DNA of 64,000 nt from an uncultured Actinomycetes bacterium (GTDB taxonomy: Bacteria > Actinomycetota > Acidimicrobiia > IMCC26256 > PALSA-610), in assembly GCA_963706745.1 (NCBI GenBank), contig CAVPMX010000002.1:204936-268935 (forward strand), in the 5' to 3' direction. Numbering within the stretch: the stretch's first letter is position 1; each line of letters opens with the position of its first letter. Positions 2,344-60,481 of the stretch are shown piece after piece. Under the pieces are notes generated by a model, which saw only the letters and a program-made list of their open reading frames with translations, searched no databases and had not been told where the DNA came from. The translations under genes were made by a program, and so were the position numbers.

Positions 2344-4407
2344 ATGAACCCCGACGGCACAGCGGCCAACGGCCTCGGACCCGAAGAGCGGTACCTCGAC
2401 CGTGAGCTCTCGTGGCTCGACTTCAACGCTCGGGTGCTGGCCCTCGCCGAGGACGCAACGCTGCCGCTCCTCGAGAGGGCGAAGTTCTGCGCGATCTTCA
2501 GCCAGAACCTCGACGAGTTCTTCCAGGTGCGCGTATCCGCGCTACGGGAGCAGGTCCTCGCCGGCGTGCGCGGGAGCACTCCGGGCAGCCTCGCCCCGGC
2601 GGAGCAGCTCCGGGCGATTCGGGACCGGGCCGAGGAGCTGGTCACACGTCAGGCGACGGTCTTCACCAAGGAGGTCGTCCCCGCCCTCGACGATGCGGGG
2701 ATCCGCTTCGTCTCCTGGTCGGACCTCGACGCCGCCGGCAAGGCGCACGTCTCCGACGTCTTCGAGGAGCAGATCTTCTCGGTTCTCACGCCCTTGGCCG
2801 TCGACCCGGCACACCCGTTCCCCTACATCTCCAACCTCTCCCTCAACCTCGCAGTCGCCGTGCGCAACGCAGCGAGCGGAGAGGAGCGGTTCGCGCGGGT
2901 GAAGGTCCCCCCGGTGCTCCCGCGCTTCGTCGCACTCCCCGACGGTGTGCGGTTCGTCCCGCTCGAGCAGGTGATCGCCGCGCACCTCGGATCCTTGTTC
3001 CCCGGGATGGAGATACTCGCCCACCATCCGTTCCGGGTCACGCGTGACGCCGACATCGAGCTGACCGACGAGTCGGAAGACCTGTTGGCGGCGATGGAGA
3101 GCGTGCTCCGGCAGCGATCGCGCTTCGGGCTGGAGATCCGCCTCGAGATCGACACCACGATGCCAACGCAGGTGCTGGAGCTGTTGTGCCGAGAGCTCGA
3201 GCTCGCTCCGTCGGACGTCTACGTCATCGACGGGCCCCTCGACCTCGGCGGCCTCTGGGACATCTACTCGCTGCCGCGACCCGAGCTCAAGTACGCCCCG
3301 TGGGCCGGGCGTATCCCCCCGGCCCTGGCCGGCGAGGAACCCGACTTCTTCCGCGCGCTGCGCGCTGGCGACATCTTCGTCCACCATCCGTACGACTCGT
3401 TCGCCAGTACCGTCGAGGCGTTCACGGCTCAGGCGGCCGCCGACCCTCACGTCCTCGCCATCAAGCAGACGCTGTACCGCACCGGGGGAGACGAGGCCGG
3501 CATCGTGCGGTCTCTCGCCAAGGCCGCTCAGGACGGCAAGCAGGTCGTCGCCCTGATCGAGCTGAAGGCCCGCTTCGACGAGCAGGCGAACATCGAGCGT
3601 GCCCGCCTGCTCGAGCAGGCCGGGGTGCACGTCGTGTACGGGTTCGTCGGCCTCAAGACCCACGGCAAGACGCTCCTGGTGGTACGCCAGGACCCCGACG
3701 GGCTCCGCCGGTACTGCCACCTCGGTACGGGCAACTACAACCCGAAGACGGCCACGACGTACGAGGACGTGGGCGTCCTCTCGGCCGACCCCGATCTCGG
3801 CTCCGACCTGACGGAGCTCTTCAACCACCTGACCGGGTACAGCCACCAGTCCGAGTATCGACGGATCATCGTCGCCCCGACACAGCTGAGGCCCGCGCTG
3901 GCCGACCTGATCGCGGGGCAGGCACGCCCCGGGGGCCGGATCACGATGAAGATGAACTCGCTGGTCGACCGGGCCACGATCGACGCCCTGTACGAAGCCT
4001 CTTCCGCCGGCGCCGAGATCGACCTCGTCGTTCGTGGGATCTGCTGCGCGCGCCCCGGCCTGCCGGACACCTCCGAGCGGATCCGGATCCGCTCGATACT
4101 CGGCCGCTACCTCGAGCACTCGCGGATATTCCGGTTCGGCGAGCCCGGCGCGGCCGACTACCTGATCGGGTCGGCGGATCTCATGCCCAGGAACCTCGAT
4201 CGCCGCGTCGAGGTGGCGCTTCGGGTCACCGACCCGCGCCTCCAGTCGCGCCTCGACGAGATCCTCGCCGTCAATCTCGCCGACGACACCCTCGCATGGT
4301 CTCTCGCCCCCGACGGCGTCTGGCACAAGGTGCCCACCGTGGAAGGATCCGACACGCACGACCGCCTCCAGGAGCTCGCTCTGGCTCGGACTGCGAGCGT
4401 GGATTGA
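2344..4407 (+). CDS. ppk: polyphosphate kinase 1
   Basis: Within track ORF 1012..4407, the in-frame ATG at 2344 gives MNPDGTAANG...RYLDRELSWLDFNARVLALAEDATLPLLERAKFCAIFSQNLDEFFQVRV, the PPK1 N-terminal signature, with PLD-like C-domains. The 1012-2343 part is a shadow antisense to the MFS gene. Confidence 0.95.
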   Translation: MNPDGTAANGLGPEERYLDRELSWLDFNARVLALAEDATLPLLERAKFCAIFSQNLDEFFQVRVSALREQVLAGVRGSTPGSLAPAEQLRAIRDRAEELVTRQATVFTKEVVPALDDAGIRFVSWSDLDAAGKAHVSDVFEEQIFSVLTPLAVDPAHPFPYISNLSLNLAVAVRNAASGEERFARVKVPPVLPRFVALPDGVRFVPLEQVIAAHLGSLFPGMEILAHHPFRVTRDADIELTDESEDLLAAMESVLRQRSRFGLEIRLEIDTTMPTQVLELLCRELELAPSDVYVIDGPLDLGGLWDIYSLPRPELKYAPWAGRIPPALAGEEPDFFRALRAGDIFVHHPYDSFASTVEAFTAQAAADPHVLAIKQTLYRTGGDEAGIVRSLAKAAQDGKQVVALIELKARFDEQANIERARLLEQAGVHVVYGFVGLKTHGKTLLVVRQDPDGLRRYCHLGTGNYNPKTATTYEDVGVLSADPDLGSDLTELFNHLTGYSHQSEYRRIIVAPTQLRPALADLIAGQARPGGRITMKMNSLVDRATIDALYEASSAGAEIDLVVRGICCARPGLPDTSERIRIRSILGRYLEHSRIFRFGEPGAADYLIGSADLMPRNLDRRVEVALRVTDPRLQSRLDEILAVNLADDTLAWSLAPDGVWHKVPTVEGSDTHDRLQELALARTASVD

Positions 4408-7897: not shown

Positions 7898-7995
7898 CGC
7901 TCCGCCCGAGGCGAGGTGCGGCCGGCGGCGGTCCGAGTTGAGTGGCGACGGCGCGTCGGGGAGACTTCCCCGCGCCCGCCAGACTCGGAGGTCCC

Positions 7996-11690: not shown

Positions 11691-12590
11691 TCACCAACGA
11701 TTCCGGAACCGGTTGCGCACCCATATGGCGAGTCCGTTCATGGTCAGTAGGAGCGCGAGCAGCATCACGATCGCGGCGGCCGCGAGCACGTGGAACTCGT
11801 CCTGCGGGCGACTCACCCAGTTGAAGATCTGAACCGGGAGCACGGTGAACGCGCTGTCGAGGCCCGTGGGATTGAACGTCACGAAGGTGAGCGCGCCCAC
11901 CATGAGGAGCGGTGCGGCCTCGCCCATGGCGCGTGACAGCGCGAGTATCACGCCGGTGGCGATTCCCGGAGTTGCGGCCGGCAGCACCTGGCGACCGACC
12001 GTCTGCAGGGGAGTGGCACCCAGGGCCAACGCTCCGTCGCGTATCGACGAGGGGACCGCGCGCAGCGCCTCACGCGACGCGATGATCACCGTCGGGAGGA
12101 CGAGCAGCGCGAGGATCACGGCGGCGGCAAGGACGACGCGACCGAGCGAGAGCGGACCGCGCACGACGAATGCCAGTCCGAGGATTCCATAGACGATCGA
12201 GGGCACCGCGGCGAGGTTCTGGATGTTGACCTCGATCAGCCGGTTGTACCAGCGGTCCCGGGGGGCGAGCTCCTCCAGGTAGACGGCTGCGGCCACTCCG
12301 ATCGGCACAGTCAGCAGCCCGGTCAGCGTGACGACCCACAGCGTCCCGAAGACCGCCGAGCGCGCACCGGCCAGGAGCGGCCTCGGCGACGGGAAGCGCC
12401 GCCACAGGCCGTCGTCGAGGCGGCCGCGTCCGTCGACGACGACACTGAGCAGGAGCGCCGCCAGAGCGAAGACCGCCACGGCGAGGCAGAGCAGCAGCAA
12501 CACGCGGAAGGCCTGCTCCTTCGCCCTCTTGGCAACGGGAGCCCGCCCGAGCCGCCCTGCGTCGCCCGAGACCGCTGTTCCGACGCTCAC
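11691..12590 (-). CDS. pstA: phosphate ABC transporter permease PstA
   Basis: 299-aa polytopic permease with the EAA-type loop [24 protein letters not shown]. Confidence 0.9.
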
Positions 12591-34771: not shown

Positions 34772-34822
34772 GGTGCGCCCCGATACCCCTTGGGGTATCA
34801 TCGCTCGGCCGAAGGAGGCGCC

Positions 34823-35092
34823 ATGGAACTGCCCGAAGAGGTCGTCGACGATCTTCTCCGCCGCCTGCGCCGCATCGAGGGGCAGGTGCGCGGCGTCCAG
34901 GGCATGCTCTCCGAGCACCGCGAGTGCCGCGACGTCGTCACCCAGATAGCGGCCGCCACCAAGGCTCTCGAGCAGGTCGGTTTCAAGCTCCTCGCGTCGG
35001 GGCTCACCTCGTGCCTGCAGGATCCCGCCCGGGCGGAGGCCGAGGGCTATCCGGTCGAGGAGGTCGAGCGCCTCTTCCTCAAGCTGACGTGA
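34823..35092 (+). CDS. csoR: CsoR/RcnR-family metal-sensing repressor (DUF156)
   Basis: LLRRLRRIEGQVRGVQGMLSEHRECRDVVTQIAAATKALEQVG, a typical CsoR helix bundle with Cys/His ligand positions. Confidence 0.85.
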   Translation: MELPEEVVDDLLRRLRRIEGQVRGVQGMLSEHRECRDVVTQIAAATKALEQVGFKLLASGLTSCLQDPARAEAEGYPVEEVERLFLKLT

Positions 35093-35102
35093 GCTGACGT
35101 GA

Positions 35103-35286
35103 GCATGAGTGAGGCCGCCGCCGTCCGCTCCGGGCCGACCCAGGCCGGCCGAGCGTGGCCCGAGCGGCCCGGCCCGCAGGGCCAGGAGCGGGAAGCATGA
35201 GTGAGGCCGCCGCCGTCCGCTCCGGGCCGACCCAGGCCGGCCGAGCGTGGCCCGAGCGGCCCGGCCCGCAGGGCCAGGAGCGGGAA
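35103..35286 (+). repeat. two tandem 92-bp MIRU-like units, each a 31-codon mini-ORF with an ATGA stop/start overlap
   Basis: Unit = GC ATGAGTGAGGCCGCCGCCGTCCGCTCCGGGCCGACCCAGGCCGGCCGAGCGTGGCCCGAGCGGCCCGGCCCGCAGGGCCAGGAGCGGGAA. ATGs at 35105, 35197 and 35289 (period 92). Mini-ORFs span 35105-35200 and 35197-35292 (MSEAAAVRSGPTQAGRAWPERPGPQGQERE[A/S]*). The last ATGA is the start of the CoA-transferase gene. Confidence 0.9.
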
Positions 35287-35288
35287 TC

Positions 35289-36527
35289 ATGAGCATGAGC
35301 GGTGGACCGCTGGCCGGGGTCCGCGTGCTCGACTTCTCCAGGGTCCTCGCAGGCCCGTACTGCGGGCGCATGCTCTCCGACCTCGGGGCCGACGTCGTCA
35401 AGATCGAGCCTCCCGAGGGCGACCTGACCCGCTTCGCGGACCCGAAGGTGAACTCGATCTCGCTCTACTACGCGCAGCAGAACACCGGGAAGCGCAACGT
35501 CTCGATCGACCTGCGCCGCGCCGAGGGAGTCGACCTCGCACTCCGCCTCGCCGAGCGCGCCGACGTCGTGCTGGAGAACTCCCGACCCGGCGTGATGGAC
35601 CGGCTCGGCCTCGGGTACGACGCCGTCTCGTCGCGGAACCCGCGGGTCGTATACGCGTCGATCACCGGCTATGGCCAGAGCGGGCCGTGGTCGGGACGCC
35701 GCGGATACGCCGTGCTCGTACACGCCGAGGCCGGCCTCGACGAGGCGGGCGCAAGGCTCCGCCGCGACGCGGGCGACCCCGACGCGACCCCCGTGCAGGA
35801 CGGCACGTCGCACGCCGACGTCTATGCGGGGCTGCACGCCGCGTCGGCGATCCTCGCGTCGCTGTTCGCGCGCGAGCACACCGGTAGCGGACAGCACATC
35901 GACGTCTCGATGGCAGAGGCGATGCTGCACACCAACGACTTCGCGCACTGGGATCTCGTCGGCGCCGAGACGGGCGACAGGTGGGCAGCCCTGGCACCCG
36001 CGTACTCCCCGATCGTGCGCACCGGAGCAGGATGCTCGATCACGATCGCCGGCGACCCGGTCGCCCCGGGCCTCTTCGAGCGCTACCTCGCCGCCCTGGA
36101 TCGTCGCGACCTCGCCGACGACCCGCGCTTCGCCATGGAGCGACGTCGGCTGCACCGACGCGAGCTCCTGCACCTGATCGAGGAGTGGACACTCACCTTC
36201 GACGACGTCGACCGCCTCGAGGCGGTGCTCGACGCTCACGGTCTGCCGGTCGGACGCCTGCGAACCGTCTCCGAGCTGCTGGAGACCGACTGGGCGCGCG
36301 AGCGCGGGGTCGTCGCGCAGGTCCCCGATCGCGGGCAGGGGACCATCCCCGTGCCCCAGGCGCCATGGCGGTTCTCCTCGCTGCCCGTCGGCGTGCGTGG
36401 CGAGCCTGCATACCGCGGCGAGCACAACCGCGAGGTGCTCGGGGAGCAGCTCGGGCTCACCGGCGAGGAGCTCGACGCCCTGGACCACGACGGGGTGATC
36501 TCGAGTCGCCTGCCCCGGGATCGCTGA
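35289..36527 (+). CDS. CaiB/BaiF family III CoA-transferase
   Basis: MSMSGGPLAGVRVLDFSRVLAGPYCGRMLSDLGADVVKIEPPEGD is a canonical family III N-terminus. Confidence 0.9.
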   Translation: MSMSGGPLAGVRVLDFSRVLAGPYCGRMLSDLGADVVKIEPPEGDLTRFADPKVNSISLYYAQQNTGKRNVSIDLRRAEGVDLALRLAERADVVLENSRPGVMDRLGLGYDAVSSRNPRVVYASITGYGQSGPWSGRRGYAVLVHAEAGLDEAGARLRRDAGDPDATPVQDGTSHADVYAGLHAASAILASLFAREHTGSGQHIDVSMAEAMLHTNDFAHWDLVGAETGDRWAALAPAYSPIVRTGAGCSITIAGDPVAPGLFERYLAALDRRDLADDPRFAMERRRLHRRELLHLIEEWTLTFDDVDRLEAVLDAHGLPVGRLRTVSELLETDWARERGVVAQVPDRGQGTIPVPQAPWRFSSLPVGVRGEPAYRGEHNREVLGEQLGLTGEELDALDHDGVISSRLPRDR

Positions 36528-44467: not shown

Positions 44468-44811
44468 GCGGGCCGCCGGACGACGCCCAGCTCACCGCTG
44501 CAGTCGATCTCGACCGTGTCGCCGTTCGCCGGCTCGTCGCCGAGGGTGGTGCCCATGACGCACGGCACCTGGTACTCGCGACTCACGATCCCCACGTGGC
44601 TCTGCGGGGTGCCCGAGAGGCAGACGACGGCCGTGAGCTCGTCGAAGATCGGGGCGAGGAACGTCGCGCCCGCGTCGGCCACGCAGGCCACGACCCCCTC
44701 GGCCGACCCGTCCATCAGATCGAGGACGTCGTCGGGGGAGTCGAGCCGCCGCCACACTCCCTGCACCGGTGCCGCGTCGAAGACCTTTGTTCCGCTTCCG
44801 ATCTCGCTCAT
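44464..44811 (-). CDS. stand-alone PEP-utilising-enzyme mobile (swivel phosphohistidine) domain protein
   Basis: GVVACVADAGATFLAPIFDELTAVVCLSGTPQSHVGIVSREYQVPCVMG resembles the PF00391 swivel domain with the candidate phospho-His. ATG 44811 has a GGAGCGGAG SD. An in-frame 31-codon extension from ATG 44904 is possible. Confidence 0.8.
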   Translation of the reverse strand: MSEIGSGTKVFDAAPVQGVWRRLDSPDDVLDLMDGSAEGVVACVADAGATFLAPIFDELTAVVCLSGTPQSHVGIVSREYQVPCVMGTTLGDEPANGDTVEIDCSGELGVVRRPA

Positions 44812-45055
44812 GATCTCCGCTCCTGGCCCTGCGGGCCGGGCCGCTCGGGCCACGCTCGGCCAGCGCGGGACGCGAGCTCTCTCGTACAGGGCAGCCTCGC
44901 TCATGATCTCCGCTCCTGGCCCTGCGGGCCGGGCCGCTCGGGCCACGCTCGGCCGCGCGGGACGCGAGCTCTCTCGTGCTGGGCAGCCTCGCTCATGATC
45001 TCCGCTCCTGGCCGCGCGGGACGCGAGCTCTCTCGTACAGGGCAGCCTCGCTCAT
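44812..45055 (-). repeat. tandem array of three MIRU-like units (93, 92 and 59 bp) forming uORFs in the operon leader
   Basis: Minus-strand ATGs at 45055, 44996, 44904 and 44811. uORF-C: MSEAALYERARVPRGQERRS* (ATGA overlap). uORF-B: MSEAAQHERARVPRGRAWPERPGPQGQERRS* (ATGA overlap). Unit A (93 bp) reads through in frame into the gene. The 3' ~45 bp are near-identical to the 35.1-kb units. Confidence 0.9.
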
Positions 45056-56728: not shown

Positions 56729-57718
56729 TCAGCCGAGCAGCCCCAGATCTGCCACGGCGTCATGCTCCTCGCGCAGCTCCGCCACCGAGGACTCGATCCT
56801 CGCCCGCGAGAAGTCGTCGAGGTCGAGGCCCTGCACTATCGACCACCGCCCGTCGGCGCAGGTGGCGGGGAACGACGAGATGAGGCCGACGTCGGCACCG
56901 TACGAGCCGTCGGAGCAGACGCCCATGCTCACCCAGTCGCCTTCGGGCGTCCCAAGGACCCAGTCGTGCACGTGGCTGATCGCGGCGTTCGCAGCCGACG
57001 CCGCCGACGAGGCGCCGCGCGCCTCGATGATCGCAGCGCCGCGCTGCTGCACGGTCGGGATGAATGTGCTCTCGAGCCACGCTTGATCGCCGACCGCCTC
57101 CGCTGCGTTGCGCCCGCCGACTTCGGCGTGGAAGAGATCTGGATACTGCGTGGCCGAGTGGTTGCCCCAGATCGTCATCTTCTTGACGTCGGCGACGGTG
57201 GCGCCGACCTTGGCCGCGAGCTGCGCCATCGCGCGGTTGTGGTCGAGGCGGGTCATCGCGGTGAACCGGTCGCTCGGCACACCCGCTGCATTGTTCATCG
57301 TGATGAGGGCGTTGGTGTTCGCGGGGTTGCCGACGACGAGCACGCGTACGTCGTCGGCGGCGCCGGCCGCGATCGCCTTGCCCTGCACGGTGAAGATCGC
57401 GCCGTTGGCCTCGAGGAGGTCCTTGCGCTCCATGCCCTTGGTGCGGGGGCGGGCACCGACGAGCAGGCAGACGTTCGCGCCCTCGAAAGCCTTGTGCGCG
57501 TCGTCTGTCTGCACAACGCCTGCGAGCAGCGGGAACGCGCAGTCATCGAGCTCCATGGCGACGCCGCCGAGCGACGGCAGCGCCGGGGTGATCTCCAGCA
57601 TCTGGAGGATCACGGGCTGGTCGGGGCCGAGCATCTGGCCGCTGGCGATCCGGAACAAGAGGCTGTAGCCGATCTGGCCGGCAGCGCCGGTCACGGCGAC
57701 GCGAACTGGGTCCTTCAC
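56729..57718 (-). CDS. mdh: malate dehydrogenase
   Basis: [23 protein letters not shown]...MERKDLL...[12 protein letters not shown]. Confidence 0.95.
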
Positions 57719-57830: not shown

Positions 57831-58055
57831 TCAGCGGGCGACGATCACGGCGACGACGGTGAGGGCGTAGACGACCGCGAGTAGGGCGACGAGCGCCCAG
57901 AGGCTCGCTGCGGTCAAGGGGTTGGGCCTCTCCGGCCCGGTCGACTGGTGGAGACCGCACGCCGGGCACCGCGCAGCACCGGCGGCGACAGGCGCGCCGC
58001 AGAGCATGCAGGCATCGCCTGCGGTGCCGGGCGAGGGCTCGGACTGAGCGGTCAC
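57831..58055 (-). CDS. small zinc-ribbon membrane protein (74 aa), coupled to folD
   Basis: Last 74 codons of the 657-aa track ORF. GTG in a GTGA overlap with the folD stop. CMLCG...CPACG plus a C-terminal TM helix (LWALVALLAVVYALTVVAVIV). Confidence 0.55.
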   Translation of the reverse strand: MTAQSEPSPGTAGDACMLCGAPVAAGAARCPACGLHQSTGPERPNPLTAASLWALVALLAVVYALTVVAVIVAR

Positions 58056-58097
58056 GATCTCCGCTCCTGGCCCTGCGACCCGGCCCGCCGCTCGGCC
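58052..58097 (-). repeat. partial copy (3' module) of the MIRU-like repeat embedded in the folD 3' end
   Basis: Minus strand: GAGCGGCGGGCCGGGTCGCAGGGCCAGGAGCGGAGATCGTGA, versus GAGCGGCCCGGCCCGCAGGGCCAGGAGCGGAGATCATGA at 44.8 kb. The 22 nt before the start codon are identical. Confidence 0.65.
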
Positions 58098-58936
58098 GCC
58101 TCGACGGTGGACCTGAGGAGCATCGCGATGGTCATCGGGCCGACACCCCCCGGGACCGGCGCGACCCACTCCGCCACCTCCATCACGTCGTCGGCGACGT
58201 CGCCGGCGATCCCCTCGTCGGTGCGCGTGATACCGACGTCGAGAACGGCCGCGCCGGGCTTGACCATGTCGGCCGTGATCAGCCCCGCCCTGCCTGTGGC
58301 CGCGACGAGGATGTCGGCCTGCCGGGTGAACTCCGGGAGGAAGTGCGTCCCCGTGTGGCACTGGGTCACGGTGGCGTTCGCGTTCTCGGCCTTGAGCGAC
58401 AGCAGCATCGAGAGCGGTCTGCCGACGGTCGGACCGCGCCCGACGATGACGACGTGGCGCTCCTCGATCGGCACCTTGTGCCGCACGAGCAGCTCGACGA
58501 TGCCCTGCGGCGTACCGGGCCTCGGGTGGCCGGGCACCCCGAGTGCGAGGTACCCGAGGTTCTGGGGATGGAGACCGTCGACGTCCTTGGTCGGATCGAC
58601 CGCGAGGATCAGCTCCGAGTAGTCGAGGTGGTCGGGGACCGGGTACTGGATCAGGTACCCGTCGACCTGCGGGTTCGCGTTGAGCTGCGCTATCAGGTCG
58701 AGCACCTCTTCTCGCGACGAGTCGGCCGCGAGGTCGTGCCTCCACGAGGCAACCCCCAGCTCCGCGCAGGCCCGGTGCTTGCTGCGGACGTACACGTGCG
58801 AGCCCGGGTCGTCGCCGATCAGGACCGTCGCGAGCCCGGGTGTGACGCCACGCTCGGCGAGGGACTCGACACGAGCCCGGAGCTCGTCCTTGATCACCGC
58901 AGCCTTGGCCCTGCCGTCGAGAATCGTCGCAGTCAC
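58052..58936 (-). CDS. folD: bifunctional methylenetetrahydrofolate dehydrogenase/cyclohydrolase
   Basis: ILDGRAKA...YVRSKHRAC...[14 protein letters not shown]...[15 protein letters not shown]. Confidence 0.95.
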
Positions 58937-58963: not shown

Positions 58964-60481
58964 TCAGTGCAGGAAGTGCCGCTCGCCCGTGAAGACCATC
59001 GCCAGGCCGAGCTCGTCGGCGCGCTCGATCACTGCCTCGTCGCGCACCGAGCCGCCCGGCTGGATCACCGCCGCCACACCCGCCGCGGCCGCCGCCTCCA
59101 CGCCGTCGGGGAAGGGATAGAACGCGTCGGAGGCGCAGGCACCACCTTCCGCCCGCCCCGCCGCCTTCTTGGCCGCGATCTCGCCCGACTCGACACGGTT
59201 CTGCTGCCCCGCCCCGATGCCGACGGCCTGCCCGCCCTTCACCAGCACGATCGCATTCGACTTGACGTGCCCGCAGACGCGCCAGGCGAGCTCGACGTCG
59301 CGCCACTGCGCGTCGGTGGGCGACGCCTTGGTCACCACCTTCCACTGGTCGCGCCCTGCAACGAAGGCGTGTGGCGCCTGAACCAGGAATCCGCCCGAGA
59401 TCTGCCGGAAGTCGAGATCGACGCCACCCGGAGGGGGCGCTTCCAGTAGGCGCGTGTTCTTCCGCTTCGCAGCGAGCGCCTCGATCGCTCCTGGGGCGAA
59501 TCCGGGGGCTATCACGAGGTCTGCCTGCGGGCCGGCGACCATTCGCTCCACGGTCTGCGCATCGACCGTTCGGTTCACCGCGACGATCCCGCCGAATGCA
59601 GAGCGCTCGTCGCACGCGAGCGCCCGGTCGTAGGCGACGGCGAGCGTGGCGTCGAGAGCCACGCCGCAGGGGTTGGCGTGCTTGATGATCGCGCAGGCGG
59701 GCGAGGCGCCGAGATCGTGCACGAGGTGCCAGGCCGCGTCGGCGTCGTAGTAGTTGAGGTACGAGAGGGCGAGGCCACCGTGCTGCGCGACGTAGTCCCA
59801 CCAAGAGGTCGTGCCGCGTCTGCGGTAGCGGGCGGCGCGCTGGTGAGGGTTCTCGCCGTAGCGGAGCTCCTCGTCGGTCCGTTCGAGCGGCACGACGACG
59901 TGGCGCGGCAGGCGCTCACCCTCCTGCAACCACTCGACGATCGCGGCGTCGTATGCGGCGGTGTGCGCGAACGCCTCGAGCGCGAAGTCGCGGCGGGTCT
60001 CGTCGCCGATCGTGCCGTCGTTGGCGCGCAGCTCCGCGATCAGCGGCGCGTACTGGTCCGGTGAGGTGACGATCGTGACCCAGGCGTGGTTCTTCGCCGC
60101 GGCGCGGACCATCGTCGGGCCCCCGATGTCGATCGTCTCCACGTCGGGGCGCTCCAGGAACGGGTACAGGTTCGAGACGACGAGCTCGAACGGCCTGATG
60201 CCCAGTCGGTCGAGGTCGGCCCTGTGGCTCTCCTTGCCGAGGTCGGCGAGGATCCCGCCGTGGATCGCGGGGTGCAGCGTCACCACCCGGTGCTCGAGCA
60301 TCTCGGGGCTGCCGGTCACGTCGGCGACGCGGGTGACGGGGAGCCCGGCGTCCTCGATCGCGGTGGCGGTGCCTCCCGAGGAGACGAGCTCGACCCCCAG
60401 GTCTGCCAGCGCGCGTGCCAGCTCGGAGAGGCCGTCCTTGTCGAAGACCGACAGGAGGGCCCTCGTGATCTTCGTCCTCAT
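58964..60481 (-). CDS. purH: bifunctional AICAR transformylase / IMP cyclohydrolase
   Basis: [12 protein letters not shown]...SSGGTA...GGILA...AFYPFPDG...[10 protein letters not shown]. Confidence 0.95.

Follow-up and report, generated by a model that had tools for sequence, protein, structure and literature searches.

Within the window (the whole 64,000-nucleotide stretch of DNA analyzed here), the minus strand carries purH (58964-60481), folD (58052-58936), an open reading frame (ORF) of 74 amino acids (57831-58055), and mdh (56729-57718), in that order. The folD gene was taken from the list of ORFs and identified with Pfam, which found both the catalytic domain (PF00763; E-value of 1.5e-37) and the NAD(P)-binding domain (PF02882; E-value of 3.3e-55) in its product. 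The match covers residues 6 to 284 of 294, and the last 7 of the 294 amino acids form a repeat-derived tail. The stop codon of folD (TGA, 58054-58052) and the start codon of the small ORF (GTG, 58055-58053) overlap as GTGA (58052-58055, minus strand). The same 294-amino-acid FolD and 74-amino-acid ORF, again with a 4-nt overlap, were called in an independent assembly (Logan ERR12037370), and the arrangement is therefore not an assembly artifact of the window.

The 74-amino-acid ORF (57831-58055, minus strand) opens with the GTG of this overlap and encodes four cysteines (CxxC...CxxC) followed by a C-terminal hydrophobic helix. Both the GTGA at the end of the repeat module (58055-58052) and this protein had been described in an earlier note made from the sequence of the window, and the GTGA and the four-cysteine membrane ORF were confirmed. 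The conservation check proposed there was run, and orthologues of the small ORF were found directly after folD in six related loci. They are 42 to 69% identical and share the hydrophobic C terminus, and all four cysteines are invariant across the seven orthologues. The Pfam zinc-ribbon models scored below their gathering cutoffs for this ORF (20.5 versus 25 bits for PF13240 and 17.9 versus 27.3 bits for PF12773).

Two arrays of repeat units, with periods of 92 to 93 nt, lie elsewhere in the window. Array A (35105-35288, plus strand) consists of two 92-nt units between a gene for a CsoR-like repressor (34790-35092) and a CoA-transferase III gene (35289-36527). Array B (44812-45055, minus strand) precedes a PEP-utilizers-domain gene, whose start is at 44811, and consists of three units of 59, 92, and 93 nt. 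Each unit is laid out as a 5' end (ATGAGCGAGGCC), a variable middle, and a highly conserved 3' module (CGAGCGTGGCCCGAGCGGCCCGGCCCGCAGGGCCAGGAGCGG-N4-C-(A/G)TGA). A full unit is a mini-ORF of 31 codons that reads MSEAA...GRAWPERPGPQGQER(R/E)(S/A) and then stops, with the stop codon overlapping the next ATG as ATGA. The start of a mini-ORF thus overlaps the preceding stop and its stop overlaps the following start, by 4 nt each. Translation of the units gave chained mini-ORFs ending in ...ERPGPQGQER(R/E)(S/A), just as the earlier note had stated for the upstream ORFs. By analogy with what has been described for mycobacterial MIRUs, the units may chain genes translationally through these stop/start overlaps.

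Some of the units have irregular features. Unit 1 of array B (44997-45055, minus strand) is missing 33 internal nt between two GGCC repeats; the deletion is in frame, and a mini-ORF of 20 codons remains (MSEAALYERARVPRGQERRS, followed by a stop). Unit 3 (44812-44904, minus strand) is 93 nt long due to one extra base (CGCGCTGGCC versus CGCGCGGCC), and its ATG is in frame with the PEP-utilizers-domain gene, giving this gene a possible N-terminal extension of 31 amino acids (146 versus 115 amino acids). No co-oriented gene lies directly upstream of array B, which seems to be located in a 5' leader and not inside an operon. Exactly at the boundary between the CsoR-like gene and array A, the 10-bp motif AGCTGACGTG occurs about three times (35082-35113, plus strand); the repeats give successive GTGAGC pieces, resembling slippage at the 5' end of a unit.

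The end of folD matches these units closely. The 22-mer CGCAGGGCCAGGAGCGGAGATC, which directly precedes the GTGA overlap at 58056-58077, recurs exactly at 44812-44833 and 44905-44926, with all copies on the minus strand. The identity to the units at 44.8 kb had been pointed out before and is exact; shuffled sequence gave no matches to the 22-mer. Three further copies with 2 to 3 mismatches are found at 44997, 35175, and 35267. A family-profile search with nhmmer returned exactly six copies within the window, the folD end among them. A looser pattern gave 7 matches in the window versus 0.1 expected, and the only addition (at 12369) is probably a chance match. Since AGGAG followed by an RTGA overlap is a common gene joint in actinobacteria, a GC-rich genome could in principle produce such a Shine-Dalgarno similarity by chance or convergence, without any repeat history. 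The exact identity over 22 nt, its absence from the shuffles, and the excess of looser matches all speak against this, as do the full units present at the orthologous junction in two relatives (L001 and L003), and we consider a chance origin practically negligible.

How much of folD derives from the repeat can be read from its homologues. The earlier note had assigned the last ~13 codons to a diverged copy of the module. The last seven codons (21 nt, 58055-58075, minus strand) and the stop do come from the repeat: they encode QGQERRS in the frame of the unit mini-ORF, lie within the region of 22-mer identity, and have a full unit as their counterpart in L001. The preceding codons, AERRAGS (58076-58096, minus strand), are in contrast native to FolD, because its two closest homologues, both of 287 amino acids, end in AERRASS (P0001, 93% identical) and AERRAGS (P0002, 89% identical); only QGQERRS is extra. 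The DNA preceding the remnant (GGGCCGGGTCG) is furthermore identical to the native folD end of a related locus (L002). Together, the C termini of the orthologues and this DNA identity rule out a repeat origin of all 13 codons. FolD lengths among the 120 nearest homologues are mostly 285 to 289 amino acids (exactly 287 in 48 of them), and none of the 120 has QGQE, GPQG, or QERR close to its C terminus. The QGQERRS tail, found in 0 of the 120, is lineage-specific, which answers the question that the earlier note had raised about FolD orthologues. The seven extra residues are polar and lie beyond the end of the Pfam match, and they are probably neutral for FolD.

To place the remnant in context, we compared the DNA of the folD/small-ORF junction in ten related loci, with intact flanking reading frames. 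Seven junctions were empty (L031, L111, L112, L113, L114, L115, and L116), meaning that folD and the small ORF overlap directly by 4 nt (ATGA or GTGA) without any repeat. The other three were filled. In L001, exactly one 92-nt unit stands between two GTGA overlaps, the first joining the folD TGA to the GTG of the unit and the second joining the TGA of the unit to the GTG of the small ORF. In L003, an ATGA overlap is followed by two or more full units, and L002 carries two short degenerate ones. The L002 units (positions 1880 to 1952 of that locus), each of ~35 nt, keep only the core GGCC(A/G)GGA..GCGG....CATGA between folD and the small ORF. Judging from these cores, a decaying unit seems to lose its Shine-Dalgarno/overlap end last.

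In a neighbor-joining tree (drawn without support values), the folD gene of the window is nearest to that of L001, and the filled site L003 sits among empty sites. The position of L003 implies either precise losses or repeated insertions at the folD junction, and an insertion shared by the window and L001 is therefore only one possibility. A metagenome scan with FolD returned mostly relatives of 50 to 61% identity, none of which carried the module, and only L031 was useful; folD was absent from all loci recovered by the pattern scan of the genome collection described below.

Given the seven empty and three filled junctions, the window most likely carries a unit that lacks 71 internal nt. Aligned to L001, the window matches up to ...TCG (position 7918) and resumes at CAGGG (position 7990), so that 71 nt are missing, and the remnant is the counterpart of the 3' end of the full L001 unit. 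Since 71 is 2 modulo 3 and the mini-ORF is one base off the folD frame, a deletion of this size brings the final seven mini-ORF codons into frame with folD. The ancestral state would have been a folD gene of 287 amino acids with a direct ATGA or GTGA overlap between it and the small Cys4 membrane ORF. A sublineage to which the window belongs would then have gained at least one unit precisely at this overlap, and the lineage of the window would later have lost 71 internal nt (or 71 + 92n if several units were present). The result would be the 21-nt remnant, with QGQERRS added to FolD, AGGAG placed 8 nt before the GTG, and the GTGA overlap kept. We regard this full route, insertion of a unit or units followed by internal deletion, as probable. 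We infer deletion rather than partial insertion as the source of the remnant; intermediate states were not seen in the window's own lineage, and other damaged units occur in the same window (the 33-nt deletion in unit 1 and the +1 insertion in unit 3 of array B).

Two other histories would produce a similar junction. The 21 nt could have been gained directly, as a gene-conversion or template-switch patch (for example, from array B) into the GGGTCG/TGA junction. Such a patch would account for the 22/22 identity of the remnant to array B units, which extends to the variable N4 (AGAT, where the L001 unit has GAAT), as well as for the TCG that borders the 21-nt insert on both sides; the patchy presence of units at the folD junction on the tree also fits. 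However, full or multiple units are found at precisely that junction in three related loci, internal unit deletions are present in the same window, and we know of no mechanism that copies just the last 21 nt in frame. We therefore view a direct patch as unlikely. The folD/small-ORF junction could alternatively have been the origin of the 3' module, with the folD tail as its source. The module segment immediately before the shared 22-mer bears a loose resemblance to the native folD end (GCCGAGCGGCGGGCCGGGTCG), the nhmmer alignment extends to 44 nt, and MAFFT pairs both segments. This likeness between the ERRAGS and ERPGPQ segments nevertheless amounts to 10 of 13 ungapped positions (counted by hand) in sequence that is nearly all G and C, and it is not clearly more than chance. 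The module is also found at many unrelated loci in ~17 metagenome-assembled genomes (MAGs), the seven related loci with empty junctions have a 287-amino-acid FolD and no module, and the tail is missing in the 120 homologues, all of which makes an origin in folD very improbable, if slightly less so than a chance resemblance.

The remnant provides the stop codon of folD, the GTGA overlap, and an AGGAG (58064-58068, minus strand; read from the sequence) that lies 8 nt before the GTG. It may thus work as a Shine-Dalgarno or coupling signal for the small ORF. Ribosomes that finish folD would reinitiate at the overlapping GTG, presumably as they did at the ancestral repeat-free overlap, and the AGGAG gained with the remnant may also permit independent initiation. 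The predicted duplex with a canonical (assumed) anti-Shine-Dalgarno tail was -7.0 kcal/mol for the remnant and ranged from -2.2 to -8.6 kcal/mol for the repeat-free junctions, with no clear separation between the two.

These results qualify the proposal, made in the earlier note, that the element can be absorbed into a housekeeping gene while acting as a portable stop/start junction. The end of a unit does lie in frame in folD, where it provides the stop, the AGGAG, and the next start. The portable-junction part of the proposal fares less well: the remnant is better read as a decay product than as an intact element in use, and the 4-nt overlap between folD and the small ORF predates the repeat, as seen from the empty sites in relatives. 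The folD junction is a tidy example of repeat decay and not a new kind of system, and on its own, the folD case is probably a small, neutral by-product. Its value lies in the empty, filled, and decayed states at one housekeeping junction, which form an unusually clear series for the insertion and decay of units. The series bears on how pieces of a unit become protein tails or the ribosome-binding sites of neighboring genes.

We also looked at the repeat family across genomes, using a module-anchored pattern (which fixes part of the module) to scan a collection of species-representative genomes. The scan returned 27 genome stretches, 24 of which are family copies, from ~17 MAGs that are mostly labeled Acidimicrobiia. 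L005 and L015 look like chance matches, and L022 is probably another. The window itself derives from an actinobacterium of Acidimicrobiia type. Units occur either as single copies or in tandem. Unit lengths range from ~52 nt (ATGAGCGGAGCGTGGCC...; L006, L025, and L027) to ~95 nt. For the six copies in the window and the family copies in the 24 genome loci, the next feature on the same strand is either another unit or an ORF of at least 70 amino acids that starts in the terminal RTGA. The downstream genes are unrelated housekeeping genes, resembling nuoD, argJ, sufC, aroA, frr, and an ABC ATPase (judged by eye from the first residues).

The genes that follow the last unit (L006 to L030, L117, and the window) nearly always start with RTGAGC. 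Of 26 such genes, 23 have AGC or AGT as their second codon; the search pattern forced just the A, and threonine is the most common second residue in 46 called genes of the related loci. ATGAGYGCG is likewise the sequence at the folD junctions of L111, L112, and L114, which lack the repeat. Units may therefore have a preference for starts similar to their own 5' end, or may be inserted there through homology. Typical units were also found in L008 and L027, on contigs of MAGs labeled Bifidobacteriaceae and Bifidobacterium breve. The L027 copy is close to the copy in L006, which comes from a Lake Baikal Acidimicrobiia MAG, and both contigs may be misbinned. A plasmid-borne element was considered and rejected, as array B had no match in a distant BLAST search against plasmids.

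The earlier note had also called for a search for other genes whose products end in QGQERRS. With a doubled mini-ORF peptide as the query, we recovered two proteins with the module as their C-terminal tail. One (P0132, in L117) is an 85-amino-acid membrane protein that ends in RAWPERPGPQGQERRS; a full unit and a YdjM-like gene come after it, in that order. The other (P0134, in L119), a ferredoxin-type subunit, carries an entire unit as a C-terminal fusion. Unit sequence is fused to the N terminus of a third protein (P0131). In metagenomic arrays (P0121 to P0124), two units are joined in frame (...QERGTVSEAA...), producing one ORF of 62 to 68 amino acids instead of two coupled mini-ORFs of 31 amino acids. 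The fusion of unit pieces to neighboring ORFs thus recurs in the repeat family. For annotation, such fusions account for unusual C-terminal tails (...PGPQGQER..) and N-terminal extensions of proteins in these Acidimicrobiia MAGs.

The constancy of the 47-nt module is a more interesting question than the folD case. When array B of the window (44812-44996) was compared with the orthologous array of MAG FR_1 (L011, positions 2916 to 3125), which has three module copies against the three units of array B, the module was identical at 47 of 47 positions in two units. The unit middles were only 62 to 67% identical, and the adjacent coding sequence, in which 29 of 116 third positions (25%) differ, was 87.6% identical. 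Within each of the two arrays, the middles are nearly alike. Units of one array thus evolve in concert, whereas the module stays constant between species. The FR_1 orthologue of the PEP-utilizers-domain gene (L011, positions 3122 to 3480) is frameshifted relative to the window after ~17 codons, probably because of an indel error in that assembly.

The conservation of the module lies in the nucleotides and not in the peptide, since the third codon positions of the mini-ORFs vary no more than the other two. Variation is greatest at a first codon position, which gives W, G, or R, and these two observations together rule out selection on the mini-ORF peptide. No match to Rfam 15 was found at the gathering score in the window, L001, L011, or L014. 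At E of ≤1, array B had no match and the folD end had a single chance snoRNA match (E = 0.47). The predicted folds of the units had minimum free energies within the range of shuffled sequences (z-scores of +0.81 to -1.43); covariation in the sole candidate hairpin is biased by the search pattern, which held its 3' arm constant. A regulon-specific RNA motif or riboswitch was rejected on the grounds of the missing Rfam matches, the shuffle-level folds, and the functionally unrelated downstream genes.

This conservation raises the possibility that the 3' module is a selected cis-acting element and that the folD remnant has been retained to tune the level of the small membrane protein relative to FolD. 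The full identity of the module between orthologous arrays, set against the diverged middles and coding sequence, favors such selection, as do the invariant third positions and the fact that every copy is oriented like its downstream gene. On the other hand, the folD remnant retains just 21 of the ~47 conserved nt, Rfam matches and folds above shuffle stability are absent, and the apparent conservation is inflated because the search that recovered the copies held part of the module fixed. We hold this explanation to be possible but less likely than not. A more specific and slightly more speculative version is that the module is a nucleotide-selected "translation junction cassette" that spread by homology-guided insertion at RTGAGC starts and is kept for the translation of the downstream gene. 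If so, the folD remnant would be a minimal retained form that raises the output of the Cys4 membrane protein relative to FolD, and the module would be a natural counterpart of synthetic bicistronic designs.

Several known systems share features with this family. REP/BIME, ERIC, Correia, and BOX/RUP elements and MITEs are likewise short and nonautonomous, with many dispersed copies that often lie within operons. They differ in being inverted repeats or hairpins that are not read as chained ORFs, whereas the Acidimicrobiia units do not fold better than shuffled sequences and are defined by their phase-exact stop/start overlap. In synthetic bicistronic designs, as in natural coupling by overlapping stop and start codons, a leader ORF ends with a Shine-Dalgarno sequence and the next start overlaps the leader's own stop (PMC12548453). 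The module and the folD remnant have this same layout of leader ORF, Shine-Dalgarno sequence, and overlap. Translational coupling and bicistronic design are, however, a mechanism and an engineering device and not a repeat family, and coupling at the folD locus is proposed here from the sequence.

The closest likeness is to the mycobacterial MIRUs, which have been described as direct tandem repeats of 40 to 100 bp in one orientation that contain small ORFs (Supply et al. 1997, as summarized in PMC12548453 and PMC5056196). They insert at start codons and couple to the downstream gene through a -4-nt overlap (ATGA or GTGA) (PMC12548453, PMC5056196). The Acidimicrobiia family agrees with them in its unit size (40 to 100 bp), its direct tandem copies, and a copy number that differs between orthologous loci (0, 1, 2, or at least 2 units at the folD junction in relatives). 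Units of both families lie at the starts of genes or between genes of the same orientation, face one way relative to transcription, and have one small ORF each, with a -4-nt overlap with the downstream gene. In both, insertion at start codons is evident from empty and filled sites, and neither has marked palindromes.

The differences from MIRUs begin with the host class, which is Acidimicrobiia MAGs and not Mycobacterium. The Acidimicrobiia family also has a strongly conserved 47-nt 3' module beside a fast-diverging middle, its downstream genes nearly always begin with RTGAGC, and in-frame fusion of units to the upstream gene is documented in it (folD, P0132, and P0134). The pattern scan of the genome collection returned no Mycobacterium record, and the pattern is too specific for this to speak on homology to MIRUs. 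Nor did searches of a paper library turn up a description of MIRU-like or intergenic repetitive elements in Acidimicrobiia. On the basis of architecture, and from published descriptions, the repeat family is best likened to MIRUs and called MIRU-like, not MIRU. Chained mini-ORFs of the MIRU type are described for mycobacteria only in the literature searched, and here the same architecture is seen in uncultured Acidimicrobiia.
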